A stretch of DNA of 64,000 bases, from NCBI GenBank assembly GCA_036785375.1, contig JAWMAR010000471.1:496001-560000 (forward strand), given 5' to 3'. This stretch comes from Leucoraja ocellata (Eukaryota). The position numbers and the translations under genes are program-made. The notes under the pieces were generated by a model, which saw only the letters and a list, made by a program, of their open reading frames with translations, had not been told where the DNA came from and ran no database searches. This document shows, in pieces, positions 5,859 through 32,653 of this stretch; positions within the stretch are counted from its first letter, which is position 1; the number at the start of each line of letters is the position of its first letter.

Positions 5859-5928
5859 ATGGGATGGAAGCGGCACTTGGAAGTTGAATATTATTATTAT
5901 CCAATTCTGGCAGCAATCGGAGTACCCG
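5859..5928 (+). CDS. GPCR copy 1, coding exon 1 (MGWKRHLEVEYYYYPILAAIGVP + 1 nt, phase 1)
   Basis: ATG at 5859, 23 codons plus G, then donor G|gtaggt at 5929. Splices in frame to the acceptor at 7589 (G+TG = Val) and supplies the N-terminus and start of TM1. Conserved upstream of all four GPCR copies. Confidence 0.9.
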
Positions 5929-6084
5929 GTAGGTGAAGGGAACGCAGTAAGTGGGACTGAGACGTGGGATGATGTGTTGATAAAAACAATGTTAAAGGTA
6001 AAGTGTAAATAGTGTGCGAAACACGGGAATGCTAGACTGCATTCTTCAGGTTAGGGCGGTATTAGCTAGAAAATGTTTGTTTAA

Positions 6085-6245
6085 GAAATGACTGCAGTTG
6101 CTGGAGAAATCGAAGCTAGACAAAAATGCTGGAGAATTGGACAGCGGGTGAAGCGGCATCTATGAAGCGAAGGAATAGGTGACGTTTCGGGTCGAGACTG
6201 ATCAGTCTGAAGAAGGGTCTCGACCAGAAACGTCACCTATTCCTT
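6085..6245. mobile_element. Penelope-like terminal remnant forming an inverted repeat in GPCR intron 1 (also ~23150-23310, ~42255-42415, ~61320-61480; related copy 305-415)
   Basis: aggaataggtgacgtttcgggtcgagac ... gtctcgacc(c/a)gaaacgtcacctattcct, about 28-bp arms; includes a ctgaaga...gaaacgtc motif. Confidence 0.6.
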
Positions 6246-6554
6246 TGTTAAGCTACTTGATCGTTCGTCGTTCATTGGATATGTCACAGGTTAATTCTCT
6301 TCAGATTCAGGTTTAGGTGCATTGTTGCCATGTCTCTCCGGGAGCTGCAAAAAGCATTGGTTTGCATGAAAAACCAAATTAGATCAAATACTATTAAATA
6401 TCAGTACAAAGAATTCAATCTCAGTAACAGGTAGTGTAAGAGGGGAAATCGGAGTGCAGAGCGTAGTTCAAGTTTGGGAGCGCACTGCAGCGTATCACAT
6501 CCACAAAGCCCAATGTCCGCAAGAGGATATAGGTGAAACGGCAATACCCTGGCA

Positions 6555-7480
6555 TATGGAAGAGCGGCTCAGAAGCCTGACAACAGAGGGTAAGAATCTG
6601 TTCTGGAGTCTGGTGGTGCGAGCTTTAAGCCTTCTGTATCTTCTGCCCGACGGGTGCAGGGAGTAGAAGGAATGAGACCCGTCATCTTCCAGAACCCTGC
6701 GCAATTTACTCTTTATAGGACATATATGTCCCCACAACAAGCTGTGATATACCCAACAGTATGCGTTCTATGCTAATCTGTCGCAGCATGTTTGAGTAAT
6801 CAGAGGCAGGTCAACGTTCCTAAGACTTCTCCGTAAAGGTGTTGGTCTGCCGCTGGCTGTCCCTTCGATGTGGTCGTCCAACAAACATCGTTGGTAATAT
6901 CAACTCCGAGGAACTTGACGTCCTCAATCACTTCCACTTCAGCACCGTTGTTGCTGACCGGTGATCCACCGCATTCCCTGATATCGATAACTTGCTCCTT
7001 GGCCTCGTTGATACAGACATAGAGATTGTCATCATCTGGGAGCTTGTGGGAGCAGTCACAGCCGCATTTGGCCGCGGGGTCGTGAGTGCATGGGAGGAAG
7101 AACCCGGAACCGGATGAGACGTCTTTATGCGGCACCGTTGTAGAGATTTATTGTGGAAGGGGTGTTATAACTACTTCTCACTGATTAAGGTACGTTCATT
7201 AGAACATTAGAAGCTGGTGTGCTGATCGCTAGGCTCGGGAGCTTATCAATGGGTTGGATGGGAGTAGTGTTGGGAATGGTAATCTGACTTTCGACTCCTT
7301 GCTGCCCGGCTGTTCCCGGGAAGGGTTTAGGTCCAGGACGATGACGTCTGATGCGGACATTTTGCTGCAATATGCAGTCTGCGGTGCAACAAGTGTGGCT
7401 GGGAGACAGCTCACGCTGCCTGCGTAGACCGCTGCTACGTAATCCGCACAGCTCCTTAGCACGCACACAGGTTTGCATGT
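6555..7480 (-). mobile_element. Degraded Rex/Babar- or L2-like LINE RT fragment in GPCR intron (paralogues in copies 2-4)
   Basis: PSGRRYRRLKARTTRLQNRFLPSVVRLL C-terminus; VKFLGVDI; NTTPIQPIDKL..LAIS-like RT remnants. Confidence 0.7.
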
Positions 7481-7589
7481 GGGCCAGTTGTTTTCGAAAA
7501 AATGTGCAAAGTGTAACCCAAATGTGACCCCCGCCTCCAAATGAGCATCGCGTTTCTCTTACATGTAACGACAGTTTTCTCTTTTCCAG

Positions 7590-8503
7590 TGAACCTGTTG
7601 GCGATTGTGATCCTGTCGCGCAGAAATTGTGGTCTATCCAAATGCACCACTCGGTTCCTGGTGGCCATGGCGTCGGCGGACCTCTTGGTGATCGTCTGCG
7701 AAGTGATATTACATCGGATTGCCGACGTTTACTGGGTGCACTCATTCCTCTTACACAATACTGTGTGCAGGTCCATTATGTTCCTCGCTCCAGCGGCCGT
7801 TGCCTGTTCTGTTTGGCTCACGGTTGCTTTCACATTTGATCGCTTTGTGGCCATTTCCACTCAGAATCTGAGAACCAGATACTGCACCGAGAGAACCGCG
7901 CTGGTGGTTATAGTGACCCTAACTGCGTTCTTCTGTTTACTGAACGTCCCCTGGCCCTTTGCGTACAATTATTATTTCAGGGATCTGCAGGGTATACAGT
8001 GGGGCTGCCTAATAAAATATCAGTTTTACAGCGTATCCTCGTGGATAGCATTTTCCTGGACTCAACAGCTGCTAGTCTCAGTCATTCCATTTTGTTTAAT
8101 TATGCTGATGAACGTGCTCACAGTCAGACGCATTTTAGTGGCCAGTCGTGTCCGCAGAAAACTCCGGGATCTCAGTAATGAGGACCCCGAGATCGCAAAC
8201 CGCAGACGGTCCGTAATTTTACTCCTTGCAATCTCCAGCAGTTTTATGGTGCTCTGGGGCACAAATGTAGCATATTTCGTTGTCTATCGAATTACGAATG
8301 CATTTTGGGTCAGGGGGTTGATGAACCAATTTGCAACATTTGAACAAACTGGAATTCTGCTACAACTGTTGAACACCTGCACAAACACGCTCATTTACAC
8401 CGTGACCCAGAGGAGGTTCAGAGAGCAGCTGCTCCAGGTACTCATGTACCCCTTCAACCGAACTGTAAGTTTAACAAAATCGAGAACACCTGGTGTAAAA
8501 TAA
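7590..8503 (+). CDS. GPCR copy 1, exon 2: class A (rhodopsin-like) 7TM receptor, GPR139/GPR142-like; 327 aa after splicing
   Basis: Acceptor ttttctcttttccag|tg. Shows TM1 VNLLAIVIL, TM2 LVAMASADL, TM3 TFDRF (DRY-like), ECL2 Cys (WGC) and TM7 NTLIY followed by helix 8 FREQL. The ORF-track start at 7541 is intronic. Confidence 0.92.
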
Positions 8504-8767
8504 CATTAAATTACTAATCCCACCGAGTGCTATGTTGTACTGGAGCAGATCTCCAATGATTCCGGAATTGAGCCTCGCCGTTAACTGTTTCCACCTTATT
8601 TTGAATCCAGCGGCAACGTCTCCAGCACGCAATGAAAACAGACTGAGAGTTATGGTCCTAAACATTGCATGCTCCATTACTCTACAATTCTTTGAGACGT
8701 TCCATGGTTACGTATGTAAATGCCCAGTGCACCAATGTGTTTAATACAATTCTTCCTGCAACATTTT

Positions 8768-9300
8768 CAATTCAATTCAATACAATTCAATTCAATTCAA
8801 TTCAATTCAATTCAATTCAACTTTATTGTCATTGCACAGATACAAGTACGGGTACAACGAAATGCAGTTTAGCTTCAGTCCGCAGTAATAGTGCAATATA
8901 GAAATAAAACATACAGAATAAGCAAACAATGCGGACGGAGAGACTGGAGAATCTATCGGCGGGACTCCGAGTTCAGCAATGTGATAGTGTTCTTGTAGAA
9001 GCTCATCCTACTAGTACGAGACCCGAGGCTCCTGTACCGCCTCCCTCATTGGAGGTGGGCAAACAGTCCATGGTTAGGGTGGGAGGGGTCTTTGATGAAC
9101 TTCCCGGCCCGTCTCAGACACCGTTTTCGGTGCAGGGCATCCATGGCAGGGAGCGGGGCACCGATGATATACTGAGCGGGTTTCACCACCCGTTGTAGTG
9201 CCTTCCTGTCCGCTACGGTGCAACTGCTGTACCATACCGTGAAGCAGGTGATCAGGATGCTTTCGATGGTACAGCGGTAAAAGTTGGTTAGGATCTGACC
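8768..9300 (-). mobile_element. Rex/Babar-like LINE 3' fragment with (attca)n tail; paralogue at 27049-27560
   Basis: YRCTIESIL..VWYSSCTVADRKALQRVVKTAQ..DPSHP motif; absent at the equivalent sites after GPCR copies 3 and 4. Confidence 0.8.
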
Positions 9301-10094
9301 AACTTTACATTACGTTAATGAGAGTTCCATTTTATATTTGTTTCTCGCACTGAATGTAATGCCTCATTGCCTCTTACAGATGCTTTCGGTTTTCAGTACA
9401 ATTAGTAATTCAGTACCAGATGCAGCCAAAGGTAGTGAGTGGGTGTTATTCATACAAGTTGGCATTACTAATTATATTTTTAATGCAAGCAATGAGTAAC
9501 AAGCGAGTGTCCAGTAGAGGGCGGTAAAGTGAGTAAGTTCACCTGTGTGGTAAAGATATGCTGAATCGATTTGCATTAATGTCCCACCTCCATTGATGCA
9601 GCGCCGACGCTGGAACTCTGCCTAATGGAGATTCTAATGAGTGCTCACAGTCGGATTTATCTCCTCCTGCAGGGCAAGGAAATGTGAGAAATTCATTAAT
9701 TTATTTTCTTCACCGATGGCGGCTGAGATTTGTATAGCTCCAAATTTGAGTTGAGTACTCTCTCCCCAAATCGTCCGCTCCCGACGTGGTAACGGTTACA
9801 TTTTTACATATTCTGATTGACATTTTCCCTCTCGAGGCCGAAAATACCTTCGCTGAACATGTTATGCTTTATTTCTCGCCATTACTGATTAAAGTAAAAA
9901 AAAAAATCAAAAGACTGAATTGAAAACGACTAGCTTCAACTGGTGACGTCACAATGTGTTGGCTAGCAGTGATCAGCTTCATTTACGTTCGGGAACGGCT
10001 TGAGTTGGGGGACCACGCCTCCTGTGGGGGCTACGGGTAGGGAACGGGTGCGTTGGGGGAGCAGACCCTATCGTAGCCTCTCATAACGTTATAT

Positions 10095-11725
10095 ACTATA
10101 TTTAAGAGGGAGTTAGATGTGGCCCTTGTGGCTAAGGGGATCAGGGGGTATGGAGAGAAGGCAGGTACGGGATACTGAGTTGGATGATCAGCCATGATCA
10201 TATTGAATGGCCGTGCAGGCTCGAAGGGCCGAATGGCCTACTCATGCACCTAATTTCTATGTTTCTATGTTTCTATACTTCAACCAGATCTTCCTGCAAT
10301 CTCCGACATTCCAGTGGGAAAGAATCCAAATATGACCAATCTCTCCCTGCACCGCTAATCCAGCCACCACTCCGGTAAATGAGCAACTGCGACTCCAAAA
10401 CACGCTGTTCTTATTAAAGGTGTCCATCTTGCTTAGTTGGCAAAGACATTCACTAATGACTTTATTACTGGTCACCAATTAGTACAGCGTGCTAGCTTAG
10501 TTAGTTTACATTAGTTCATGATAGGCGTCTACAGGGTAGACTGTCAGAACTTTGATTTTCCCAACGGTCGGTTCTAACCGGGATGGCTGGTCTGGCAGAT
10601 GTTGAAATAATGGAGTGACTGGCCTTGTATTTATTAGAATTTAGAAGGATGAGAGGGGTTCTTTTTGAAACATATAATGTTATTGAGGGTTTGGACGCGC
10701 TCGAGGCAGGAAACATGTTCCCGATGTTGGGAGAGCCCAGAACCAGGTCCACGGTTTAATAATAAGGGGTAAGCCATTTAGATGGAGATGCCGAAACAAA
10801 TGTTCACACATGGAGTACTGAGTCTGTGGAGGCCGGTTCTCTGGATACTGTCAAGAGAGAACTAGATAGGTCTCTTAAAGATAGTGGAGCCTGGGGAAAA
10901 GGGGAGAAGACAGGAACGGGGTACTGATTGTGGATGATCAACCTTGATCACATTGAATGGCGGTGGTGGCTCGAAGGGCCGAATGGCGTACTCCTGCACT
11001 TATTGTCTATTGAAAAGAAGCTTATCAGCTAATTTCCAACTATCATATCTGCAGGACCTTCTCTCTCCGCTTCCAGACCCATAAACTAATTTATTGCACA
11101 AACACATGTGTTACTTTTTAAGCTAGGGTGCTCTCTCGATTGCTAAATAGCCTACACCTTATACTTAAACTGTGGTCCCTAGGCCTGGACCCTCTCAACA
11201 TCGAGAACATGGTTCCTGCCTCCAACGTGCCCAATCCCTTAATAATATTTTATGTTTCAAAAAGAGCTAATCTCAGCATACTAAATTCCAGTGTATACAA
11301 GCCCAGCCGCTCCGTTATATCCACATATGACAGTCCCGCCATCCCGGGAATTAACCTCGTGAACCTACGGTGCACTTCTTCAATAGCAAGAATGTCGTTC
11401 CTCAAATCTGGAGACCGAAACTGCACACAATACTCCTGGTGTGGCCTCACTAGGGCCCTGCACAACTGCAGAATGGCTTCTTTACTCCAATACCCAATTC
11501 CTCTTGTTATGAAGGCCAACGTGCAATTAGCTTTCTTCACTGCCTGCTGTACCCGCATGCTTATTGTCAGTAAGTGATGAACAAGGACACCAAGTGATAC
11601 CCATCACCTTCTCAAGTGCAAAAGTTTCCCTCCCGTTCCTGTTAAACATTTCCCCTCTCACCTTTAACCTAATTCCTCTGGTTCTTGATTCTCCAACTCT
11701 GGGTAAAGGACAAGATACAATATGC
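10095..11725. mobile_element. Several CR1 3' fragments in both orientations (paralogues 28345-29980)
   Basis: LVRPHQEYCVQF..RRFTRLIPGM; 3' UTR gatcagccatgatcatattgaatggc motif. Confidence 0.8.
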
Positions 11726-12129
11726 ATTTACTTGTCTCATGTACCAGTTGGTACAGTGAAATGTGTGGTCAACATACAGCCATACAATAAAATAAAGAAC
11801 ACAACACACGATAGAGTCCAACATAAAACATCCCCACACAGCAGAATAAAGTTTCCCACTGTGATTCAGGTGTGATTCACGTTGTCCAATCCGCTAATGA
11901 CTTCATACACTCTGCCTCGTGCGCCCAAGGAACATAGGCTCAAGATATCAGAGATCTGCTGTGCACACAGGCCCTTCGTCCCACACAATCTGCGCTTACC
12001 ATCGATCACCCCATACAGTAGCACTCTACTACAAGCTGGAAACAATTTACTATTTATAGACGTTAAAAATAAACTATATTTCTGTACGTGCTTCGAGTCT
12101 GGGAGGAAACCGGAGCACGCGGAGAAAAC

Positions 12130-12965
12130 CCAGGCAGTCATCAGAATCAGAATCGGAATCAGAATTATGTGTATTGTCATTTTAAAGTAGGTTCGGACGA
12201 AATTACGTTCCTGCAGACAGAACAACAACAACAAAACACACACAATTAGCACAATTCCACACAAACATCCATCACATTGAATCTCCAAACACCTCCTCAT
12301 TGTGATGGAAGGCAAAGGTCTCATCTCTTCCCTGTTCTCTGTTCTTTATTCTTGTCCCGCAGTCAAGCAGTCAAACTGCTGCATCAAGCTGATCGAAGCT
12401 TTTGATGTTCGAGACCCCGGCGGACCATGGTAAGTCCCGCGTTCGTTTACGCCGTGCCGGGCGATATAAGGCCCTGCTACCGGTCGATTTAAACCCCTTG
12501 ATTCGGGCGGGAGAAGTTGCCGTTGCGGGAGCTCCGAAAAGTGGTCCCCCACAAGGGACCCGCGAGCTCCCGATGTTACCTTCCACGGGGCCTGCAGCCG
12601 GAGCCTCCGAAGCGCCGTAGTCGGATCGCAGCCGCGCGCCACCGCAGCGCTCCGCGCACCGATGTCGGCAGCTCCGCGATAGTGAGTCCGCAGGCTGCGC
12701 GACTGGAGCCCCAGGTCGATTCCGGTTGGAGGCCGCCTGCTGCACGATGTTAGGCCCCAACAACAACGGACACTCGAGAGGGAAAAGGTCGAGTCCCAGA
12801 ACGGGGAAGATATTTAAAAATCCCCCCTGCACCCCCCCCCCCCCCTCCCGCCCACATATACACATCTAAAACTAATATAAAACTAAACCAAAACATACAT
12901 CTAACAAGACAAAAAGAAAGAAAAGAGAGACATACTGCGGAGGCCATGGCCGCGAGGCGCCGCCT
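12130..12965. mobile_element. Unclassified GC-rich interspersed repeat (also 30390-31215; a related element in opposite orientation at ~23995-24780)
   Basis: Multi-copy, GC-rich, with microsatellite-like ends; the overlapping ORFs lack recognisable domains. Confidence 0.55.
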
Positions 12966-13099
12966 TCTTGTCCAACCGTGAGAACTTGCAAAATCGTTAC
13001 CGACAGTTACGACACTACGCCGCCTAATTTATTCCTAGCCTGTTCAACCTATCCTTTCAGCGAAGTCACTGGAGGTAGTATAGTAGAGCTATGATCTGG

Positions 13100-13522
13100 A
13101 ACATAGAAACATAGAAACATAGAAAATAGGTGCTGGAGTAGGCCATTCGGCCCTTCGAGCCTGCACCGCCATTCGATATGATCATGGCTGATCATCCAAC
13201 TCAGTATCCTGTACCTGCCTCCTCTCTATACCCCCTGATCCCTTTAGCCACAAGGGCCACATCTAACTGCATCTTAAATATAGCCAATGAACTGGCCTCA
13301 ACTACCTTCTCTGGCAGAGAATTCCACAGATTCACCACTCTTTGTGTAAAAAATGATTTTCTCATCTCGGTCCTAAAAGACTTCCCTCTTATCCTTAAAC
13401 TGTGACCCCTTGTTCAGGACTTCCCCAACATCGGGAATAATCTTCCTGCATCTAGCCTGTCCAACCCCTTAAGAATTTTGGAAGTTTCCATAAGATGCCC
13501 CCTCAATCTACTAAATTCTAGC
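13100..13522 (-). mobile_element. CR1 3' fragment with (acatagaa)n tail; paralogue 31352-31775
   Basis: Same 3' UTR and tail as other CR1 copies. Confidence 0.85.
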
Positions 13523-14360
13523 GAAGGAACAATCTTCTAGTGAAGGTGTTGTCATGTTCCTGTTGTGAAGGAATTCCCAGACTATAGCGATGTCGAGAAG
13601 TAATTCAGTACCGGATCATTGAGCAAAAACAGTAATTACGGCCTTAAGGTATTTGCACATTTGTGCAGTGGCCCATTGGGAAAGGCGCCATGCGTATTTA
13701 AAGTGTTTAATTTTACTGCCCTCACGTGAATATCCATCAGGGGATTTATTTCAGCAGTTGCTGTAGCTATGTATCTGGTGTCCAGTGATATATCCTCCGA
13801 CACAGATGTGGATTACTCAGTAGGGCCCAATGATGAACTATCCATCTGCATTACAGCTAATCCGCCATTTGCGGTAAATAGTTTGTTTTATTGACTTCCT
13901 ATTCTTCCCGCGTCCGGGACGATTTTGCTGCTATTAGTGAAGGTCAATCAACTGGAATTGGAAAGTCTGTCAGGGTGTCGGTGAAGTGGAATTGGGTAAC
14001 GTAATTGTGACAATTCAGGGCCAGCCCATCCTCCATCCAGAGACACCCTCGTTTTAATAACTAAAACTGTAAAATCTGCAGTTATTAAACAGGTTATCCA
14101 GGACTGAGAGAGAGTAAAACAGAACACACGTTTCAGATCTCTGGTCACATTTCCTATCCCGCGGTCGTCAGAACTCTTGTAATTCTCTGTAGCTAGCGGC
14201 TAATGTTATGGAAACGGATTCCGGAGAAGCAGCTCGCAGTTGGAAACAATAAAACCACCAGGACACCTGCACACAATGAAAGCAAACCGACAACTGAGAG
14301 AGAACAGGAAAGCAGGCACATCCAATCGCATCAGCGGAGCAGAGAGCAAGACAAAGGCGA

Positions 14361-14398
14361 TGTTTTTGTAAGGGGCTTAACTTGTTTCCATCACTGTG
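14361..14398 (-). promoter_or_regulatory. Recombination signal sequence (23-type) of V1
   Basis: On the - strand: CACAGTG (14398-14392), 22-nt spacer, ACAAAAACA (14369-14361; 8/9 match to ACAAAAACC). Confidence 0.93.
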
Positions 14399-14705
14399 CG
14401 CCACAGTGCGCAGTAATAGACTGCAGAGTCGCTGAGATCCAGCCCTGAGATACTCAAGCTGGTGAACTTTGTCGCGGTATTGAGCTCAATAGAGAAACGA
14501 GTATCAGCGTATTGGGCCGTATCTTCATTGTTGCTGGTGTCTCTCGACATAGTAAACTCGGGCTGCATGCCTGGATATTGTCGGTACCAGAATAAAGTGT
14601 ATGCTGCCCATGTGGTATCATAGTTACAGGTTAAAGTCACCGCTTCTCCTTTTGTCTTCGTCGCCGAGGGCAGTGGCTGTGTGACAGATTCTCCGTGAAT
14701 AGTGA
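14399..14705 (-). CDS. T-cell receptor alpha/delta-type variable gene segment 1 (V exon)
   Basis: Acceptor ttttacag|tc. Ig V-set fold: SVTQ..VTLTC (Cys23), WYRQ (Trp41), RFS, LSISGL..SDSAVYYCAL (Cys104). Open frame running into an RSS. Confidence 0.93.
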
Positions 14706-14823
14706 CTGTAAAATAAATATATTGAGATAGTAACAGACATCGGAGTCCCATGAGATTGCACTTCTCAAGCCAAAATCTCACTGCGGAGGGCGAGGGGAAC
14801 TGAAAATATTGATCCAGAATTAC

Positions 14824-14869
14824 CTGTCAGAAACGCTCCCCACACAACACAGATGCCGATGAAACGCAT
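14824..14869 (-). CDS. TCR V segment 1, leader exon (MRFIGICVVWGAFLT + 1 nt)
   Basis: ATG at 14869 (-), hydrophobic signal peptide, donor G|gtaatt, 118-nt intron to the V exon. This is the standard Ig/TCR leader architecture. Confidence 0.88.
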
Positions 14870-14986
14870 TTTACCCGTTCACTCTGTACTAGCTGAGTTC
14901 CAAACTTGAAGAGACACAAACAGGAGCGTTTTCTCAGTCGAAGGGCGTCTGCTGGTCTCCCTGTCACTGCCCTGTGCCCCCAGCGA

Positions 14987-14994
14987 TGTCGTCA
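14987..14994 (-). promoter_or_regulatory. CRE-like element (TGACGACA) about 120 nt upstream of the V1 leader; also at 33242-33249 for V2
   Basis: 7/8 match to TGACGTCA. CRE-like motifs are typical of TCR V promoters, but this short motif could be chance. Confidence 0.3.
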
Positions 14995-17900
14995 GAGATG
15001 TGGGTGGGCAACGGGGTCTCAGCCAATTGAAATACACGTAGCCGGAATCCAGCTTTCCCCCCGAGCGTAGTCGCATCCGCTTGAACAAACCGTGGTTGAG
15101 GAAGGCATATTTGTTCTGGTAACCGGTAGTGAAGGTGCGAAGCCTGATATTGTTAAGCGGAACAATAATAAGGTGCATATTCACAAATGGAATAGATCGG
15201 GTAAACTCACAGAGTCTCTTGGCCAGATTGGGGGATCGAGAAACAGAGGACATAGATTGAACTTGAGTGGGGAGGAAGATTTAATAGAGACCAAAAGGGT
15301 AACTTTTTCATACAAAGGGGGCGGCGCATGGAACGCGCTGGCAGAGGTAGTAGTTAAGGCAGGTACAATCGCAAAGTTTAAGAAGAACGTTGACATGTAC
15401 ATGAATAGAGCTGATGTTGAGGGATATGGGCGAAACGCTTGCGGGTAGGACTGGTGTGGATGGAACATGTTGGCCGGTGTGGGCAAGCGGGGGCCTAAGG
15501 GTATGTTTCCACGTTGTAAGACTCTATGATGCCTTGATTCTAAAACAAACCACCACAGTATTAACGTCGTCCGTCAAAAGGCGACAGGCAGTGGTCAGAT
15601 CTACCGTCGCTTCGGCAGTGTCGAGAAAATGGGAGTTGTTACGATGTTTTGATGTTTTCATTGAGAAATGCACGTGATTTCTATATGAAGTAAATTACAA
15701 GCAAAGCCAGAATAATGTGCAAGGATCCATTTTCAATCAATGTTTTTAGTTCCACTCCCCTTCATCTGCCATGTTTTGACATATGAAATTCATTGCTGAG
15801 GACCTCACCCCACCGAGTCCACGCCAACCATCGATGACCCGATCACTTTCGTTCCATGTTATTCCACTTTTCCATCTATTCCTCACACACTTGGTGCATG
15901 TTTACACAGGCCAATTCACCTAAAATAACCACACGTATTTTGGATACGGGAGGAAATCAGAGCGCCTGGACGATACCGACACGGTCACAGCGAGACGGGA
16001 AAACTCCACTCAGACATTACCCGAGGACAGGATTGATCCCGGATCTCTGAAGCTTTGAGGCAGCAGCTGCGCCACTGAACCGACAAATGTGTGATTTGTT
16101 TTTATAAAGATTGCAGCTGGGTGATTGTTGAACTTTAACCACAGCTAGCCGGCAAAATCGGTTTGGAATTTCCATGAGTTTCAGCATTATATCGAGTGGT
16201 CTGGTGATCTGCATTCTGCGCACCGACCGCTGCTGCCTGGATTCGGTTCGTGGTCAGGGAGTAGGGCGGTTTATTTCTGCCTCCAGTGGAAACATTATTA
16301 GAGCGCGCATCGTTCACTATGTGTAGTTTCAGCGTCGCCTCCACCACGGGAACAGTCAGCAGCTGATTAACATTTAAAATGATGCACTTATGCAAAATAC
16401 ACACACATTATTGCTACCAACGGCTAACAATACCATAATCCCGACAGGATCAGGCGGCCAGGGCTTTCAGATACAAATTCATATTGAGATTCACATTCAA
16501 AATATATCTCCAAAATCGAAGAAAATATATGCCAACAATGGCCCACAAATCATCTTATCGAATATGCTAACTATACAACGTGTTGTGCGTCATGTAAACT
16601 ACATGTAACAGTTGCTCGCGGAATGGCGTGGATATCAGGGTAGTTGGGGAGGAGCAGCCATACATTGAGAAATCGTAACATTTGGCTGGGTCTTTACATG
16701 GAAATGGTTCCGCCTTCACAGGCCTCGACTATGGGAAAAACAACTGCGATTATTGTGAATTGTGGAATTATAGTACGTCACGTTTTTGAATTTCAAAATA
16801 TACTTTATGCGAGAAATTAATATGTCCAATACATGACCCTTACAAAACCCCATCCGACATTCACGGAGGCTAAGCATACATCCAATACTGCTTACACAAA
16901 TTACACAATTTTACCTCCCACCTAAGGGGTCACAAATAACATTAGCACATTTGCAGATGACACAAAGCTGGGTGACAGTGTGAACAGTGAGGAGGATGCG
17001 GTGAGAATGACTTCGACAGGTGGGGTGAGTGGGCAGATGCATGGCAGCAGCAATTTAATGTGGGTAAATGTAGGGTGAGCCACTTAATTAATGTGAGGTT
17101 AGCCAAGTAATTCCACATCAATGCATTATCAACGCATTCCGATGATTTCCCCCTAATATCTGCAATAACGTCACATGCCTGTCTGTTTTATTGATAAAAA
17201 CATCTCGAAATATAACTCTTTGATCAAGGACATTCCTTGCTGATATTTATTCCTGGTCATTTAGCACGTTACACGTTATATTTTCATATCATTGTCATCA
17301 TGTAATATATTAATGCCGCTGCTGTATCCAATTGTATTCACTACCAACTAGAAAGGTCCATGTGATTTGCCTCATTTAGACCGCTGCACAGGAACCATTC
17401 TCGTTTGTTTTGAAGAGGAGCTCCAAGCGAAATCCAGGAAAATATTATCACTGGTTAAATGTCAAGTGAATTCAACAGTGTCTGGGAAGAGCAGTAGAAA
17501 GGTTGCAAATACATTATTACATCGCAGCATGTGTTGATAAGTGATGACAAGGTCATAAGTGATGCGTGCAGAATTAGGCCACTGGGCCCATCAAGTCTAC
17601 TCTGCCATTTAATCATGGATGATCCATCTCCCCCTCCCCCCCAACCCCATTCTCCTGCCTTCTCCCCATAACCCCAGACACTCGTACTAATCCAGAATCT
17701 GTCTATCTCTGCCTTAAATATATAAATTAACGGCATCTACAGCTTGGTGTGGCAAAGAACTCCACAGATTCACCTCCCATTAATTAAATAAATTCGTCCT
17801 CCTTATTGCCAAAGTAACGCCATTCTATTCTGAGGCTATGGCCTATAGTCGTAGATTCTCCCTCTAGTGGAATCATCCTCTCCACGACCATTCTATGCAA

Positions 17901-18675
17901 ACATTTCACGATTCGGTAAGTTTCAATGTGGTCCCCCCCCTGATGCTTCCAGTCTCCAGCGAGTACAGGCTCAGTGTCTTCAAACGATCAACATATTTTA
18001 ACTGCCTCATTCTTGAAATCGTTGTTGTAAACGTCCCCTGGACCCTCTCCGCAGCTGGCTCATCCTTCCTTAGATATGGTGCCCACAATTGCTCACAATA
18101 GTCCAAATGCGAGCTGACCAGCGCCTTTGTAGTGCCTCAGTATTACATACCTGTTGTTTTATTCTTTCCCGATTGAAGTAAATGCTAGCATTGCGTTTGC
18201 CTTCTTTACTACCAATTCGATTTGCAAATTACCTGGTTTGGGAATCCTGCACTAGCCCTCTCATGTCCCTTTGCACCTTCGATTTCTTGATTCTCTCCCG
18301 ATGTTTTGAAATATTCTATGCCTTCTACCAAAATGCATGACTCCACACTTTGTTACTCAATATTCCATCTGCCACTTCTCTGCCCACTCTCCAAACCTAT
18401 CCAAGTTCTTATGTAAAGACCCAGCTTTCTGTCCACCACCTGTGTATGGAGCATGCTGCCGGTGATGGTAGTTGAGGCAGGTACTGTCGCAACGTTTAAG
18501 AAATATTGCAACAGGGACGTGGATACGATATGTTAACAGGAATATGGGCCAATCGTAGGCAGGTGGGGGTGTGCAGATGGGGTACATTTTTGATCGTGGG
18601 CAGGTTGGGCCGGGGGACTATTTTTCACGCTGTATGACACTAGAACTCTATGCCAAGATCGAAGAACAACAAGTC

Positions 18676-21672: not shown

Positions 21673-22932
21673 GTTAATTCGCTTGATAAAAAAACGTTAA
21701 ATTATCCAACTTGGCGATATGCAGAGTACTGCCCTGCCTACTTCAAAAATCAGAAGGTTCAGTAGGTAATACCTGAATTGATCATCTTGTCATATTTTAA
21801 CCCTCCATAACTCATCATGGTTTTGTTCGCTGCAGAGGGAAAACAATACTGCATTATCCAGTCCATCTCACAATTCACACTATCCAATACTAGCATCATT
21901 CGTGTGAGGAGAGTTGCATACTCCCTAGTTTAAATTGATCCTTAATTCATTATTTCGGAAAATAATATCCCTGTTCCTGTGCTGTACTGCATTGTGAAGT
22001 TTTTGTTTTCCTGTGAATTCCTTAGGTCGAGTGCAGCAAACATGACACTTCTTTCTTAGGTCAAATCTTTCTTCAGAATGATCTATCCCCAAACATTTAC
22101 AGCCGATCAGACCCAGTCAATTCGTTCTATTATCTTGCACATCCACATTCGTGATATCTCAAACGGATTAATGCATTGAGAAGATTTCGCCCTAATATCT
22201 GGAATAACACCAAAAGCTGCTCACCTCTGTGTTTTATGATTTAACACATTAATTTAAAGATAACCTGTTGATCAAGAATATTTCTAGCCGCTGTTTATTT
22301 CCAGTCAGTTGTCACGTTACACATTATATTCGCCTATTTTTTACTTCATGAAGTGCCAACAGTTGAAAGACATTAATGCTGCTGTTGTAGCTGAATTGTA
22401 TACGATGTCATCTAGAAGGTTCCCTGTGATTTACATAATTTAGACCCTGCCCAAGAATGATTATCTTTCCTTTTGAAAGGGAGCTCCACGGAAAATCCCA
22501 GATCAAATTATTAACGGGTGCATGTTAAATGAAGGGAACGGTGTCTGGAAAATGCATTACAAATGCTACAAATACTATACTGTATTACATCGCAGCATGT
22601 TCGTATAAATACTACATAACATGAATTTTGCTGCATCTGTGTGCCACGCGTTAAAATTTAAAAATAGAATGTGCAGTCGTATTTTACAGTTCCTTAGTTC
22701 TGTTGGTGCTCAGCTGGTGCCTGAGTAGCGAGCGATCGCATAATGAGTTTGATCGCTTTGCATCACCTGGGAGCAAACTATTTGTTCAATGGTCCACAAT
22801 AAATGTCCGCGGGGAGGTGAACGCACGGTGTCCTTCACTTTGTCCTAAGAATATAAATATAGCGTTGTTTTACTACTCACTTTGACTTCTATACGTTTTG
22901 CACTGCATAACTGCGGACGGCTTGACGGAAAA

Positions 22933-23002
22933 ATGAGTTGGATGCGGCACTTGGAAGTTGAATATTATTATTATCCAAATCTAGCAGCAATCGCAATACC
23001 AG
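22933..23002 (+). CDS. GPCR copy 2, coding exon 1 (MSWMRHLEVEYYYYPNLAAIAIP)
   Basis: Homologous to 5859-5928; donor G|gtaggt at 23003. Confidence 0.88.
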
Positions 23003-23729
23003 GTAGGTCAATGGAACGCAGTAAGTGGGACTGAGATGTGCGATGATGTGTTGATAAAGACAATGTTAAAGGTAAAGTGAAAATAGTGTGCGAAACATGG
23101 GAATGCTAGACTGCATTCTTCAGGTTAGGGCGGTATTAAGAAATGTTTAAGAAATTACTGCAGTTGCTGGAGAAATCGAAGGTGGACAAATATGCTGGAG
23201 AATTAGACAGTGGGTGAAGCGGCATCTATGAAGCGAAGGAATAGGTGACGTTTCGGGTCGAGACTGATCAGTCTGAAGAAGGGTCTCGACCCGAAACGTC
23301 ACCTATTCATTTGTTAATCTACTTGATCGTTGGCCTTTCATTGGATCTGGCACAGGTTAATTCTCTCCAGATTCAGGTTTAGGTGCATTGTTGTCATGTC
23401 TCTCCGGGAGCTGCAAAAAAGCTTCCGGAGAGACATGACAACAATGCACCTAGATCAAATAATATTAAATATCAGTACAAACTATTCAATCTCAGTAACA
23501 GGTAGTGTGAGAGGGGAAATCGGAGTGCAGAGCGTAGTTCAAGTTTGGGAGCGCACTGCTGCGTATCACATCCACAAAGCCCAATGTCCGCAAGGGGATA
23601 GAGGTGAAACGGCAACGCCCTGGCATATGGAAGAGCGGCTCAGAATCCTGCCAACAGAGCGTAAGAAGTTGTTCTGGAGTCTGGTGTTGCAAGCTTTAAG
23701 CCTTCTGTATGTTCTGCCCGACGGGTGCA

Positions 23730-23992
23730 GGGACGGGTGATGGAATGAGCGGTTGTTATTTTTGTCCCGTTTTAATGAAGGGGGTGAGATTTAATGAATT
23801 ATTCTTCTTCTCCCTGCTTTTCGAGCTTGTACAGACACAGAGTTGGACATTGGACATTTGCTTTTTGTTCTTTTCATTCCTTGTAAACATTGATTGTAAT
23901 GTCCAATTGTTTGATAATTTCCATTTTGTTACTATGAATGTCTTTAATATCTTTACTTGTTCGGAATAAATAAAATAAATAAATAAATAAAT
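23730..23992 (+). mobile_element. Short retroposed 3' UTR fragment with (aaat)n tail in GPCR copy 2 intron
   Basis: Present only in copy 2; AT-rich, ending aataaataaaataaataaataaataaata. Confidence 0.5.
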
Positions 23993-25677
23993 ACATGTGG
24001 TTTTAATTTATTTTTTGATGGGGTATGTGTGTGTGTGTGTGTGTGGGGGGGGGGGGGGGCGGAAACTTTTAAAATCTTTCCCCTGCACGGCCAACCCGAC
24101 CTCTTCCCTGTCGTTGGGGCTGCACGTGGGGCGGCCTCCAGCAGGAACGAACTGGGGCTCCAGTCGCGGAGCTGCGGAGCTACTCACCATCATGGAGCTG
24201 GCCGAATCCGGAGCGGGTGGAGCTGTGGTGGCGCGTTGCTGCGACCCGACCCCCGGAGATTCGGAGGCTTACCGCAGGTCTGGCAGACAGTAATATCGGG
24301 AGCCCGCGGGTCCCTGCTGGGAGACCGCTTTTCGGGGCTTCCGCAACGGCGACTTCTCCTGCCCGAGTCGCGGGGTCGAGGAGCACCTGGAGCGGGGCCT
24401 TACATCATCGCACGGCGTGGCTTCAACGGCTGCGGGACTTTTCTAGCGCCCGCCGGAGGCTCCAACAACAAGACCCGGAGCGCGGCCTTGCATCACCCTG
24501 CGCGACGTTAATGGCCGCGGGACAATTGCCATCGCCCGCCGGGGGTTTTGCCTCTGACATCGGGAGGTAAATGGGGAGTGCTGGGGAGAGATACGTTTTT
24601 TTTTTTGCCTTCCATCACAGCGAGGAGGAGATGCGCTGTGATGGATGTCTGTGTAAATTGTGTTGTGTCTTGGGTCTTTTTTTCTTGCGTGGATGACCGC
24701 AGAAACAACATTTCATTTGAGCCTCTATGAGGTTGAAGTGACGAATAAATTGTATTGTGTATTGTGTATTGTGTATTGAGATGTGCCCGCAGGAAGCTGT
24801 AATGTACCCAACAGTACGCTTTCTACGCTAATCTGTAGCAGCATGTTTGAGTCATCAGAGGCAGGTCAAAGTACCTCAGACTTCCCAGTAAAGGTGTTGT
24901 TCTGCAATTGGCTTTCCCTTCGATGTGGTCGTCCATGAAATATCGTTAGTAATATTAACTCCGTGGAACTTGAAATCCTCAATCACTTCCACTTCAGCAT
25001 CATTGCTTGTGCCGGTGATCCACCGCTTTTCCTGAAATCGACAACTTGCTCCTTCGACTAGTTGATATTGACGTATAGATTGTCATTATCTGGAAACTTG
25101 TGCGAGCAGTCACAGCCAAATTTGGCCGCGGGGCCGTGAGTGCACAGGGTGAAGGGTCGGGGACGGGGAAGACATCTTTATTCGGCACCGTTGTAGAGAT
25201 TTATTGTGGAAGTGGTGTTAATACTAATTCTCACTGATTAAGGTATGTTCATTAGAACGTCAAGTGTGCACTCGCAAGCTGGGGTGCTGATCGCTAGGCT
25301 CGTGAGTTAATCAATGGTTTGGATGGGAATAGTGTTGAAGGCAAGTTCTCCAGCGGAGAAATGGGAATCTAACTTTCGACTCCTTTGTTGCCCGGCTGTT
25401 CCCGGGAACTGTTTAGGTCCAGGACGATGGCATCTGATGCGGACATGTTTTGCTGCTATATGCAGTCTGCGGTGCATCACGGGTGGCTGGGAGACAGCTC
25501 ACGCTGCCTGCGTATACCGCTGTTAGCTAATCCGCACAGCTCCTTAGCACGCACACAGGTTTGCATGTGGGCCAGTTGTTTTCGAAAAAATGTGCAAAGT
25601 GTAACCCAAATGTGACCCCCGCCTCCAAATGAGCATCGCGTTTCTCTTACATGTAACGACAGTTTTCTCTTTTCCAG

Positions 25678-26591
25678 TGAACCTGTTGGCGATTGTGATC
25701 CTGTCGCGCAGAAATTGTGGTCTCTCCAAATGCACCACTCGGTACCTGGTGGCCATGGCGACGGCGGACCTCTCGGTGATTGTCTGCGAAGTGATATTAC
25801 ATCGGATTGCCGACCTTTACTGGTGGGACACATTCTTACTCCACAATACTGTGTGCAGGTCCATTATGTTCCTCGCTCCCGCGGCCGTTGCCTGTTCTGT
25901 TTGGCTCACGGTCGCTTTCACATTTGATCGCTTTGTGGCCATTTCCACTCAGAATCTGAGAACCAGATACTGCACGGAGAGAACCGCGCTGGTGGTTATA
26001 GTGACCCTAACTGCGTTCTTCTGTTTACTGAACGTCCCCTGGCCGTTTGCGTACAATTATCATGTCAGGGATCAGCAGGGTATACAGTGGGGTTGCCTAA
26101 TAAGATATCACTTCTATAGCCTATCCTCGTGGATAGCATTTTCCTGGACTCAACAGCTGCTTGTCCCAGTCATTCCATTTTGTTTAATTATGCTGATGAA
26201 CGTGCTCACAGTTAGACGAATTTTAGTGGCCAGTCGTGTCCGCAGAAAACTCCGCGATCTCAGTAATGAGGACCCCGAGATCGCAAACCGCAGAAGGTCT
26301 GTAATTTTACTCCTTGCAATCTCCAGCAGTTTTATGGTGCTCTGGAGCACAAATGTAGTATATTTCGTTTTCTATCGAATTACGAATGCATTTCGGGCCA
26401 GGGGGTTGATGAACCGATTTCCAACATTTGAACAAACTGGAATTCTGCTACAACTGTTGAGCACCTGCACAAACACGGTCATTTACACCGTGACCCAGAG
26501 GAGGTTCAGAGAGCATCTGCTCCAGGTACTCATGTACCCCTTCACCCTAGCTGTAAGTTTAATAAAATCGAGAAAACCTGGTGTAAAATAA
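25678..26591 (+). CDS. GPCR copy 2, exon 2, GPR139/GPR142-like 7TM receptor, intact
   Basis: Acceptor tttccag at 25677; open frame paralogous to copy 1 with the same length. Confidence 0.92.
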
Positions 26592-29500
26592 CATTATATT
26601 ACTAATCCCACCGTGAGTCAGTGCAAAAACTAGGTAATGAAGGAGTTTTGTCTGAAAGCTTTCCGCATAAATTTTCAAAAACATAGCTGAGAAATACAAT
26701 CTGAACCTGCGTCCCCTGCACTGGAATGCATATTTGGCCATCTATTTAACATGCAACACGGGCGCGTTGTTCAAAGTGCCTAGTGGGAAGGGCGGCCATG
26801 TGGAACGAGTGCTATGTTGTACTGTAGCAGACCTCCAATGACTCCGGAATTGAGCCTCGCCGTTAACTGTTTCCACCTTCCTTTGAATCCAGGGGCAACG
26901 TCTCCAGCACGCAATGAAAACAGACAGAGAGTTATGGTCCTAAACATTGCATGCTCCATTTCTCTACAATTCTTTGAGACGTTCCATGTTTACGTATGTA
27001 AATGCCCAGTGCACCAATGTGTTTAATACAATTCTTCCTGCAACATTTTAATTCAATTCAATACAATTCAATTCAATTCAATTAAATTCAATTCAACTTT
27101 ATTGTCATTGCACAGATACAAGTATGGGTACAACGAAATGCAGTTTAGCTTCAGTCCGTAGTAATAGTGCAATATAGAAATAAAACATACAGAATAAGCA
27201 AACAATGCGGACGGAGAGACTGGAGAAATCTATCGGCGGGACTCCGAGTTCAGCAATGTGATAGTGTTCTTGTAGAAGCTGTTCCTCGTCCTACTAGTAC
27301 GAGACCCGAGGCTCCTGTACCGCCTCCCTCATGGGAGGTGGGCAAACAGTCCATGGTTAGGGTGGGAGGGGTCTTTGATGAACTTCCCGGCCCGTCTCAG
27401 ACACCGTTTTCGGTGCAGGGCATCCATGGCAGGGAGCGGGGCACCGATGATATACTGAGCGGTTTTCACCACCCGTTGTAGTGCCTTCCTGTCCGCTACG
27501 GTGCAACTGCTGTACCATACCGTGAAGCAGGTGATCAGGATGCTTTCGATGGTACAGCGGTACGTTAATGAGAGTTCCATTTTATATTTGTTTCTCGTAC
27601 TGAATGTAATGCCCCGTTGCTTCTTACAGATGCGTTCGGTTTTCAGTACAATTAGTAATTCAGTGCCAGATGCAGCCAAAGGTAGTGAGTGGGTGTTATT
27701 CATACAAGTTGGCATTACTAATTATATTTTAATGCAAGCAATGAGTAACAAGCGAGTGTCCAGTAGAGGGCGGTAAAGTGAGTAAGTTCACCTGAATGGT
27801 AAAGAGATGCTGAATCGATTTGCATTAATGTCCCACCTCCATTGATGCAGCGCCGACGTTGGAGCTCTGCCTATTGGAAATTCGAGTGAGTGCTCACAGT
27901 CGGATTTATTTCCTCCAGCAGGGCAAGGAAATGTGAGAAATTCATTAATTTATTTTCTTCACCGATGGCGGCTGAGATTTGTATAGGTCCAAATTTGAGT
28001 TGAGTACTCTCTCCCCAAATCCTCCGCTCCCGACGTGGTAACGGTTACATTTTTACATATTCTGATTGACATTTTCCCTCTCGAGGCCGAAAATACCTTC
28101 GCTGAACATGTTATGCTTTATTTCTCGACATTACTGATTAAAGTAAAAAAAAAAATCAAAAGACTGAATTGAAAACGACTAGCTTCAACTGGTGACGTCA
28201 CAATGGCTCGGCTAGCAGTGATCAGCTTCACTTACGTTCGGGAACGGCTTGAGTTGGGGGACCACGCCTCCTGTGGGGGCTACGGGTAGGGAACGGGTGC
28301 GTTGGGGGAGCAGACCCTATCGTAGCCTCTCATAACGTTATATACTATATTTAAGAGGGAGTTAGATGTGGCCCTTGTGGCTAAGGGGATCAGGGGGTAT
28401 GGGGAGAAGGCAGGTACGGGATACTGAGTTGGATGATCAGCCATGATCATATTGAATGGCCGTGCAGGCTCGAAGGGCCGAAAGGCCTACTCCTGCACCT
28501 AATTTCTATGTTTCTATGTTTCTATGTTTCTATACTTCAACCAGATCTTCCTGCAATCTCCGACATTCCAGTGGGAAAGAATCCAAATATGACCAATCTC
28601 TCCCTGCACCGCTAATCCAGCCACCACTCCGGTAAATGAGCAACTGCGACTCCAAAACACGCTGTTCTTATTAAAGGTGTCCATCTTGCTTAGTTGGCAA
28701 AGACATTCACTAATGACTTTATTACTGGTCACCAATTAGTACAGCGTGCTAGCTTAGTTAGTTTACATTAGTTCATGATAGGCGTCTACAGGGTAGACTG
28801 TCAGAACTTTGATTTTCCCAACGGTCGGTTCTAACCGGGATGGCTGGTCTGGCAGATGTTGAAATAATGGAGTGACTGGGCTTGATATATTGGAATTTAG
28901 AAGGATGAGAGGGATTCTTTTTGAAACATATAATGTTATTGAGGGTTTGGACGCGCTCGAGGCAGGAAACATGTTCCCGATGTTGGGAGAGTCCAGAACC
29001 AGGTACACGGTTTAATAATAAGGGGTAAGCCATTTAGATGGAGATGCCGAAACAAATGTTCACACATAGAGTACTGAGTCTGTGGAGGCCGGTTCTCTGG
29101 ATACTGTCAAGGGTGAGCTAGATAGGTCCCTTAAAGATAGTGGAGTCAGGGGAAAAGGGGAGAAGACAGGAACGGGGTACTGTTGTGGATGATCAACCTT
29201 GATCACATTGAATGTCGGTGGTGGCTCGAAGGGCCGAATGGCCTACTCCTGCACTTATTGTCTATTGAAAAGCAGCTTATCAGCTAATTTCCAACTGTAT
29301 CATATCTGCAGGACCTTCTCTCTCCGCTTCCAGACCCATAAACTAATTTATTGCACAAACACATGTGTTACTTTTTAAGCTAGGGTGCTCTCTCGCTTGC
29401 TAAATAGCCTACACCTTATACTTAAACTGTGGTCCCTAGGCCTGGACCCTCTCAACATCGAGAACATGGTTCCTGCCTCAAACGTGCCCAATCCCTTAAT

Positions 29501-32500
29501 AATATTTTATGTTTCAAAAAGAGCTAATCTCAGCATACTAAATTCCAGTGTATACAAGCCCAGCCGCTCCGTTATATCCACATATGACAGTCCCGCCATC
29601 CCGGGAATTAACCTCGTGAACCTACGGTGCACTTCTTCAATAGCAAGAATGTCGTTCCTCAAATCTGGAGACCGAAACTGCACACAATACTCCTGGTGTG
29701 GCCTCACTAGGGCCCTGCACAACTGCAGAATGGCCTCTTTACTCCAATACCCAATTCCTCTTGTTATGAAGGCCAACGTGCAATTAGCTTTCTTCACTGC
29801 CTGCTGTACCCGCATGCTTATTTTCAGTGTGTGATGAACAAGGACACCAAGTGATACCCATCACCTTCTCAAGTGCAAAAGTTTCCCTCCCGTTCCTGTT
29901 AAACATTTCCCCTCTCACCTTTAACCTAATTACTCTGGTTCTTGATTCTCCAACTCTGGGTAAAGGACAAGATACAATATACATTTACTTGTCTCATGTA
30001 CCAGTTGGTACAGTGAAATGTGTGGTCAACATACAGCCATACAATAAAATAAAGAACACAGCACACGATAGAGTCCAACATAAAACATCCCCACACAGCA
30101 GAATAAAGTTTCCCACTGTGATTCACGTGTGATTCACGTTGTCCAATCCGCTAATGACTTCATACACTCTGCCTCGTGCGCCCAAGGAACATAGGCTCAA
30201 GATATCAGAGATCCGCTGTGCACACAGGCCCTTCGTCCCACACAATCTGCGCTTACCATCGATCACCCCATACAGTAGCACTCTACTACAAGCTGGAAAC
30301 AATTTACTATTTATAGACATTAAAAATAAACTATATTTCTGTACGTGCTTCGAGTCTGGGAGGAAACCGGAGCACGCGGAGAAAACCCAGGCAGTCATCA
30401 GAATCAGAATCGGAATCAGAATTATGTGTATTGTCATTTTAAAGTAGGTTCGGACGAAATTACGTTCCTGCAGACAGAACAACAACAACAAAACACACAC
30501 AATTAGCACAATTCCACACAAACATCCATCACATTGAATCTCCAAACACCTCCTCATTGTGATGGAAGGCAAAGGTCTCATCTCTTCCCTGTTCTCTGTT
30601 CTTTATTCTTGTCCCGCAGTCAAGCAGTCAAACTGCTGCATCAAGCTGATCGAAGCTTTTGATGTTCGAGACCCCGGCGGACGATGGTAAGTCCCGCGTT
30701 CGTTTACGCCGTGCCGGTGGATATAAGGCCCTGCTACCGATCGATTTAAACCCCTTGATTCGGGCGGGAGAAATTGCCGTTGCGCGAGCTCCGAAAAGTG
30801 GTCCCCCACAAGGGACCCGCGAGCTCCCGATGTTACCTTCCACGGGGCCTGCAGCCGGAGCCTCCGAAGCGCCGTAGTCGGGTCGCAGCCGCGCGCCACC
30901 GCAGCGTTCCGCGTACCGATGTCGGCCAGCTTCGCGATAGTGAGTCCGCAGGCTGTGCGACTGAAGCCCCAGGTCGATTCCGGTTGGAGGCCGCCGGCTG
31001 CACGATGTTAGGCCCCAACAACAACGGAGACTCGAGAGCGAAAAGGTCGAGTCCCAGAACGGGGAAGAGATTTAAAAATCCCATCTGCACCCCCCCCTCC
31101 CGCCCACATATACACAGCTAAAAATAATATAAAACTAAACCAAAACATACATCTAACAAGACAAAAAGAAAGAAAAGAGAGACAGACTGCGGAGGCCATT
31201 GCCGCGAGGCGCCGCCTTCTTGTCCAACCGTGAGAACTTGCAAAATCGTTACCGACAGTTACGACACTACGCCGCCTAATTTATTCCTAGCCTGTTCAAC
31301 CTGTCCTTTCAGCGAAGTCACTGGAGGTAGTATAGTAGAGCTATGATCTGGAACATAGAAACATAGAAACATAGAAAATAGGTGCTGGAGTAGGCCATTC
31401 GGCCCTTCGAGCCTGCACCGCCATTCGATATGATCATGGCTGATCATCCAACTCAGTATCCTGTACCTGCCTCCTCTCTATACCCCCTGATCCCTTTAGC
31501 CACACGGGCCACATCTAACTGCATCTTAAATATAGCCAATGAACTGGGCTCAACTACCTTCTCTGGCAGAGAATTCCACAGATTCACCACTCTTTGTGTA
31601 AAAAATGATTTTCTCATCTCGGTCCTAAAAGACTTCCCTCTTATCCTTAAACTATGACCCCTTGTTCAGGACTTCCCCAACATCGGGAATAATCTTCCTG
31701 CATCTAGCCTGTCCAACACCTTAAGAATTTTGTAAGTTTCCATAAGATCTCCCCTCAATCTACTAAATTCTAGCGAAGGACCAACCTTCTAGTGAAGGTG
31801 TTGTCATGTTCCTGTTGTGGAGGAATTCCCAGATTATAGCGATGTCGAGAAGTAATTCAGTACCGGATCATTGAGCAAAAACAGCAATTACGGCCTTAAG
31901 GTATTTGCACATTTGTGCAGTCGCCCATTGGGAAAGGCGCCAGGCGTATTTAAAGTGTTTAATTTTAATGCCCTAATGTGAATATCCATCAGGGGATTTA
32001 TTTCAGCAGTTGCTGTAGCTATGTATCTGGTGTCCAGTGATATATCCTGCGACACAGATGCGGATTACTCAGTAGGGCCCAATGGTGAACTACCCATCTG
32101 CATTACAGCTAATCCGCCATTTGCGGTAAATAGTTTGTTTTATTGACTTCCTATTCTTCCCGCGTCCGGGACGATTTTGCTGCTATTAGTGAAGGTCAAT
32201 CATCACCTGAAATTGGAAAGTCTGTCAGGGTGTCGGTGAAGTGGAATTGGGTAACGTAATTGTGACAATTCAGGGCCAGCCAATCCTCCATCCAGAGACA
32301 TCCTCGTTTTAATAACTAAAACTGTAAAATCTGCAGTTATTAAACAGGTTATCCAGGACTGAGAGAGAGTAAAACAGAACACACGTTTCAGATCTCTGGT
32401 CACATTTCCTACCCCGCGGTCGGCAGAACTCTTGTAATTCTCTGTAGCTAGAGGCTAATGTTATGGAAATGGATTCCGGAGAAGCAGCTCGCAGTTGGAA

Positions 32501-32615
32501 ACAATAAAACCACCAGCACACCTGCACACAATGAAAGCAAACCGACGACTGAGAGAGAACAGGAAAGCAGGCACATCCAACCGCATCAGCGGAGCAGAGA
32601 GCAAGACAAAGGCGA

Positions 32616-32653
32616 TGTTTTTGTAAGGGGCTTAACATGTTTCCATCACTGTG
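32616..32653 (-). promoter_or_regulatory. Recombination signal sequence (23-type) of V2
   Basis: CACAGTG (32653-32647), 22-nt spacer, ACAAAAACA (32624-32616). Confidence 0.93.

Follow-up and report, generated by a model that had tools for sequence, protein, structure and literature searches.

The window analyzed here, a 64,000-nucleotide stretch of the genome of the skate Leucoraja ocellata (positions 496,001 to 560,000 of scaffold C471, in contig k4 of that scaffold, from a 3.44-Gb assembly), carries four G-protein-coupled receptor (GPCR) genes, GPCR1 to GPCR4, and two T-cell receptor (TCR) variable (V) genes, V1 and V2. We consider it probable that this stretch is part of the V array of the TCR alpha/delta locus, with its GPR139-like genes as likely passengers, and that V1 and V2 join by inversion and the plus-strand V genes at lower coordinates by deletion. 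The GPR139-like genes were likely copied along with the V genes. An initial annotation of the window had proposed that use of V1 deletes GPCR1 and that use of V2 deletes GPCR1, V1, and GPCR2, with GPCR3 and GPCR4 kept; on the assembled scaffold, this proposal fails, as all joining (J) segments and the constant region of TCR alpha (C-alpha) lie on the high-coordinate side.

The whole of scaffold C471 (1,597,627 bases) was scanned for V, GPCR, J, constant (C), and diversity (D) elements. J-like matches, identified by a 12-spacer recombination signal sequence (RSS) and an FGxG motif, numbered 132 and all lay between 1,396 and 1,597 kb; the full-scaffold scan gave none below 1,390 kb. A single C-alpha was found in the assembly (1 match of 14 candidates), on the minus strand of contig k18 at 1,499,699 to 1,499,968, with a transmembrane exon near 1,497.2 kb. 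Eight of the 10 relatives of the C-alpha exon at an E value of ≤0.001 are C-alpha-like, and several of these, from sharks and a ray, bear the name TCR alpha; the other two are chance matches. The Pfam C1-set search gave no match on C471 among 150 scored matches, none of three Pfam PF09291 matches was over the cut-off, and a search for longer homologues with C-alpha returned nothing. J segments and C-alpha are 0.89 to 1.09 Mb from the window. The V1 signal faces away from all of them and is separated from the nearest J by 886 kb. V1 and V2 are thus on the same scaffold as the 12-RSS J array and C-alpha, across gaps. Read in scaffold order, the V1 and V2 signals do not face D or J segments of the same orientation, as deletional joining would require, and the position of J and C at higher coordinates in this assembly is the result that the initial annotation had itself named as fatal to its geometry.

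V1 and V2 each consist of a leader exon and a V-set exon with the conserved Cys, Trp, and Cys in an open frame (Pfam V-set match). The two are 93% identical, and TRAV/TRDV chains are among the top PDB matches of V2. Both carry an RSS with an exact heptamer, one nonamer mismatch, and a 22-bp spacer, which falls within the 23(±1) class. When spacers of 22 to 24 bp and ≤1 mismatch were allowed, the window contained 2 RSS sites, compared to 0 in each of 100 base shuffles; patterns with a fixed spacer of 23 or 12 gave 0 matches in the window because the V1 and V2 spacer is 22 bp. The reading of the initial annotation that both signals face lower coordinates was correct, both V genes being on the minus strand with heptamer, 22-bp spacer, and nonamer 3′ of each, as was the gene order that it gave: GPCR1(+), V1(−), GPCR2(+), V2(−), GPCR3(+), GPCR4(+).

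Among five V1-family copies compared, all but one of 14 replacement codons (13 of 14) are located at positions 29 to 34, 48 to 63, and 97, which we take to be loop regions from the usual layout of V domains; this placement suggests, from sequence comparison, that the family is in use. A longer-homologue search with V2 returned merged V models, and V2 depth was 0 in one polyA RNA run (6% of the run; tissue unknown, another organism). In read sets X1 and X2, which are from other samples and in which depth is not copy number, the contig depth of the V2 exon was ~4 to 7 times that of C-alpha. Beside the 13 V1-family matches in the assembly, this ratio would fit assembly of both haplotypes.

Across C471 we found 259 V matches, 182 of them intact-looking with a 22-24 RSS (110 plus, 72 minus) and 143 of these 182 on contigs k0 to k3. 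With the duplicate-like contigs k0, k5, k6, and k11 removed, 42 GPCR loci and 121 V genes remained, 107 of these V genes being plus and 14 minus. The full set of GPCR loci on the scaffold, 62 in number and 41 of them with an open second exon, is confined to 411 to 1,347 kb, between the distal V array and J; none is in the lowest 411 kb. Unrelated genes between V and J, the mark of passenger genes, are here represented by these 62 loci.

Under the 12/23 rule, a minus-strand V gene joined to a plus-strand J segment further up inverts the intervening DNA and loses nothing. A V1 or V2 join would invert ~0.9 Mb without GPCR loss. After an inversion by V1, that gene would adjoin J and retain GPCR2 8 kb upstream of it, while GPCR1 would not move; V2 would face the remaining J segments, and a second join would remove GPCR2 and the V1-J unit, not GPCR1. 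Joining of each of the 91 plus-strand V genes below GPCR1 would excise all four window GPCRs, and for the 88 that lie below every GPCR, it would excise all GPCRs of the locus. It is plausible that the choice of V would alter GPCR content, through V genes other than V1 and V2 and, for the large distal array, mostly by loss of every copy. The V-dependent GPCR removal put forward in the initial annotation therefore survives as a consequence of the locus map, by way of other, plus-strand V genes, and falls where it was tied to V1 and V2. Sequential alpha joins are known in mice and have been proposed for sharks (PMC5931798). Mouse Tcrb and Igk can undergo long inversional joining, which is rare in mouse Tcra/d (PMC10772921).

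The coordinates of the window features are collected in Table 1.

Table 1. Genes, recombination signals, and duplicated segments of the window (position 1 is its first base)
Feature	Position	Strand	Description
GPCR1	5859..8503	+	Exon 1 5859-5928, exon 2 7590-8503; open, 327 aa; GT/AG splice sites; Pfam 7tm_1
V1 RSS	14361..14398	−	Heptamer CACAGTG 14398-14392, 22-bp spacer, nonamer ACAAAAACA 14369-14361; toward low coordinates
V1, TCR alpha/delta V gene	14399..14869	−	Leader 14869-14824, V exon 14705-14399; intact
GPCR2	22933..26591	+	Exon 1 22933-23002, exon 2 25678-26591; open, 327 aa
V2 RSS	32616..32653	−	Heptamer CACAGTG 32653-32647, 22-bp spacer, nonamer ACAAAAACA 32624-32616; toward low coordinates
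V2, TCR alpha/delta V gene	32654..33124	−	Leader 33124-33079, V exon 32960-32654; intact
GPCR3, frameshifted copy	42029..44398	+	Single extra base near codon 179; frame ends at 220 aa
GPCR4	61093..63462	+	Exon 1 61093-61162, exon 2 62549-63462; open, 327 aa
Recent tandem duplication	8524-19056 vs 26806-37333		10.6 kb, 95.8% identical; V and GPCR 3′ flank copied together

GPCR1, GPCR2, and GPCR4 share 293 to 304 of 327 residues and score 65 to 68 bits against Pfam 7tm_1 (curated cut-off, 30.5), which places them in class A (rhodopsin-like). Exon 1 of GPCR1 was located by means of the N termini of relatives, with its start codon at 5859. GPCR3 reads for only 220 aa, compared to 327 aa in the other three; its frameshift recurs in a 99%-identical copy at scaffold position 698 kb, on a different contig, and is therefore not a one-off read error. 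GPCR relatives at an E value of ≤1e-20 numbered 1,272; nearly all of the best 120 are named "probable G-protein coupled receptor 139," an automatic name, and they span sharks, rays, and chimaeras. The best named relative of GPCR2 is the "probable GPCR 139" of Leucoraja erinacea (93% identical). Human GPR139 is a distant match (E = 3.6e-7) and the assembly holds at least 122 copies, so one-to-one orthology with human GPR139 is not supported. Olfactory receptors have a single coding exon; that identity was rejected on the two coding exons and the match to 7tm_1 alone.

The family is not confined to the V array: 72 of 122 scored matches are on contigs other than the five V-array contigs. An array of 13 copies, 87 to 90% identical to GPCR2, occupies 6.03 to 6.38 Mb of scaffold C128, at the scaffold end. 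The same scaffold has immunoglobulin (Ig)-like constant exons, and no V gene was seen in the 56 kb examined. This array may adjoin the TCR alpha/delta locus. Within the window, a long LINE (long interspersed nuclear element) copy at 53345-56378 has endonuclease and reverse-transcriptase frames interrupted by stops, and shorter retroelement fragments occupy most of the spacers, including the V-GPCR intervals.

Additional V and constant genes were noted in the scans. A V family starting SVTQSPNAV, with an unusual framework, is part of a repeated V-V-GPCR unit at 1,004 to 1,241 kb of C471, and two of its copies carry only a 12-spacer RSS match. Two odd V exons immediately precede the J region. 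The first, at 1,375,390 (minus strand, weak RSS), is single-copy and ~42% identical to V exons of Ig-like clusters elsewhere; it may correspond to the V gene that other vertebrates carry inverted after C-delta. The second lies at 1,387,377 (plus strand, poor RSS), and a truncated copy of it is found at 1,380.8 kb. Between 1,433 and 1,598 kb there are at least 83 distinct J-alpha segments (11 in k16 and 72 in k18), and they include a recent burst of near-identical copies spaced 0.3 to 1.5 kb apart with a common nonamer, AGTTATTGA, three mismatches from consensus. C-alpha exon 1 (~1,499,950, minus strand) is divided between two frames because of a one-base shift close to its beginning; misassembly of a G run is the probable cause, and a broken allele a less likely one. 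Scaffold C77 has two near-identical constant exons at 1.44 and 1.68 Mb, 244 kb apart, which resemble those of TCR gamma or beta.

The direction of the J-C-alpha region was examined through the contigs that carry it. Several contigs of C471 appear to be second copies of others: k1 recurs inverted in k0 (96%), k4 recurs in k5 (98%), and part of k18 recurs inverted in k17 (96%). J segments are placed on the minus strand in k16 (11) and k18 (72) and on the plus strand in k17 (49); all 49 of k17 match k18, and none of the 11 of k16 does. Because these 11 have no copies in k18 and k18 is continuous up to C-alpha, k16 represents the 5′ J set. The scaffold puts this set closer to the V array than it puts C-alpha, which fits a plus direction of J-C-alpha. 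If the contig order is right, we infer a plus direction for J-C-alpha and a flipped placement of k16 and k18. We think it unlikely that a genuine mirrored J cluster serves both V orientations: a gap delimits k17 exactly at either end, its 49 J segments all match k18, and there is one C-alpha. Within the V array, orientation was consistent across the end overlaps of contigs k3 through k8 and of k13 with k14. A separate contig, C1182, gap-free over the 190 kb examined, has a V1-like gene in the reverse orientation to the J-nearest V families of C471, so V1 and V2 run opposite to those families. A stretch common to contig C5524 and k15 was considered as a possible link and rejected, being a repeat and not low-copy.

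Related species provide a second line of comparison. In table S1 of PMC12227049, the stingray has V genes upstream of C-delta and C-alpha in mixed orientation, with 5 of 9 TCR alpha/delta V rows opposite to C-alpha, and megabases of IgM and other V genes between the TCR V genes and C-delta. The same table places epaulette shark V genes upstream of C-alpha, with 15 of 26 V rows opposite to it, and on the catshark scaffold the nearest V, delta, and alpha genes are all plus, with V upstream. Mixed V orientation is thus usual in these fishes, and the plus majority in the skate cannot on its own fix the direction. The elasmobranch antigen-receptor complex described there resembles the skate locus in having TCR alpha/delta V genes of mixed orientation upstream of C-delta and C-alpha; its main text has 0 matches for GPR, GPCR, or G protein, and table S1 is without GPCR genes (the PDF supplement being outside this scope). 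The available portions of PMC10322711 and PMC5931798 hold nothing on V orientation. A search by title and abstract start, which leaves subscription journals and unread supplements outside its scope, found no paper on GPCR genes in a cartilaginous-fish TCR locus.

A number of observations weigh against an inversional V1 and V2 within a plus-directed locus. Scaffold C471 contains 18 gaps of 200 N, which divide it into 19 contigs (k0 to k18). The C-alpha contig k18 is placed minus and its 96%-identical copy k17 plus, and a plus-running J-C-alpha needs k16 and k18 to be flipped. No sequence overlap tying k14 to k15, k16, or the J contigs was found, so the side and direction of J relative to the V array rest on the assembler's order. 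At 267 to 268 kb of C1182, a gap-free junction leads from sequence like that at 1,287 kb of C471 directly to sequence like that at 452 kb. The array order therefore differs between contigs, and the junction suggests a very large tandem duplication, a copy-number difference of the V-GPCR block, or a different order. The exons that we take to be C-delta-like, from their resemblance to delta constant regions, are on an unplaced 28-kb contig, C5524, together with four near-identical J segments with a 12-spacer RSS; they were matched with shark C-alpha at an E value of 4.6e-6. Scans of C471 and of the 28 kb of C5524 gave no D segments, and the data examined held no rearranged V1 or V2 sequence or transcript. 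Mouse Tcra/d joins occur almost only by deletion (PMC10772921), and in the white shark, the exception in table S1 of PMC12227049, V genes lie downstream of a plus-strand TCR alpha. Lastly, of 36 intact V genes with an upstream GPCR on the same contig, 25 are head-to-head with it, although these pairs are copies of a few units and are not independent.

The geometry of the initial annotation would be restored if the V array were reversed relative to J, so that both window V genes point toward J, with GPCR1 lost on use of V1, and GPCR1, V1, and GPCR2 lost on use of V2. The link from V array to J is scaffolded across gaps and is not contiguous; the IgM and other V megabases of the stingray type are missing here between k14 and J; and the epaulette shark rows show that a plus majority is not diagnostic. 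Such a reversal would nevertheless leave 107 of 121 V genes pointing away from J; the low side of the scaffold has no J, D, or C match, and the assembler put the J contigs at the high end with the 5′ J set first. We regard a reversed array as unlikely.

Taken literally, the scaffold would have J-C-alpha running minus with the V array downstream of C-alpha, in which case plus-strand V genes would invert, and V1 or V2 would leave its joined gene on an excised circle and yield no heritable receptor. Contig k18 is indeed placed that way, and the white shark annotation has the same layout. However, the order k16(−), k17(+), k18(−) is impossible as one chromosome copy, with k17 duplicating k18; the 5′ J set would need to sit beyond the far end; stingray, epaulette shark, and catshark have V upstream (PMC12227049, table S1); and V1-family genes look selected for use. 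We find this layout very hard to credit.

The initial annotation had further suggested that T-cell clones could differ in GPCR content or expression according to V choice. In such functional variegation, a V-linked GPCR would be brought near the TCR-alpha enhancer or copies would be removed, so that clones would express different paralogues. The open second exons, the head-to-head pairs, and the fact that the upstream neighbor moves with its V gene under inversion and deletion alike would all allow this. In the window, V1 stands head-to-head with GPCR2 and V2 with GPCR3. The start codons, however, are 8,064 bp (V1-GPCR2) and 8,905 bp (V2-GPCR3) apart, with retroelement fragments between; GPCR3, the partner of V2, is broken; the distal 411 kb with most of the intact V genes has no GPCR; and the close paralogues (87 to 90%) form an array on C128. 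In polyA RNA run X24 (tissue unknown, another organism; 6%), depth was 0 to 2 on GPCR2 exon 2 and at most ~0.3 on C-alpha exon 1, and with both near zero, the run says nothing on T cells; reads from repeats dominated the mappings. Clonal GPCR variegation is unlikely, and we give its functional form very little weight. A receptor-choice device, in which the V gene used would fix which of 40 to 60 orphan GPCRs survive, with one carried head-to-head with the V promoter near the TCR-alpha enhancer as a clone-specific paralogue, is most improbable.

Passenger genes at the skate locus, the reading we prefer, have counterparts in mammals. Olfactory receptor genes lie among TRAV genes at TRA/TRD in human, mouse, and opossum (PMC2275272, PMC7696796), and, like the skate genes, they are class A GPCR genes among V genes in an interval that joining removes. 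Their place is the extreme 5′ end, where mouse and opossum have a single TRAV interspersed (PMC2275272, PMC7696796), whereas the skate has 42 to 62 GPR139-like two-exon loci in the J-nearer 0.9 Mb, duplicated with V genes. Trypsinogens in TRB are likewise an unrelated multicopy family, lying between V and D/J (PMC7696796, PMC10772921, PMC2275272) and removed by deletional joins; these are enzymes in blocks flanking the V cluster, while the skate genes encode receptors and alternate with individual V genes, the orientation being mixed. Mouse Tcrb trypsinogens are not expressed in T cells (PMC10772921). By analogy, the skate receptors would be silent in T cells, so that loss from one or both alleles would be without effect. 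Inversional V genes are known in Igk, as Trbv31/TRBV30, and as Trdv5/TRDV3 (PMC10772921, PMC7696796); like V1 and V2, they are opposite to J, and inversion keeps the DNA between. Upstream V genes of mouse Tcra/d are almost only deletional, whereas in the skate a minority of upstream V genes, including V1 and V2, would need long inversions. The skate locus is plausibly a larger variant of the passenger-gene arrangement known in mammals.

If this reading is true, skates carry far more passenger receptor genes in TCR alpha/delta than mammals do, and the majority of alpha/delta joins would remove as much as a megabase of such genes. Some V genes must then join by long inversion, unlike those of mouse Tcra/d. 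The locus would offer a new way to diversify T-cell clones only if T cells prove to express the receptors in a pattern that follows V use. Excision circles and the mode of joining would become testable in a cartilaginous fish.

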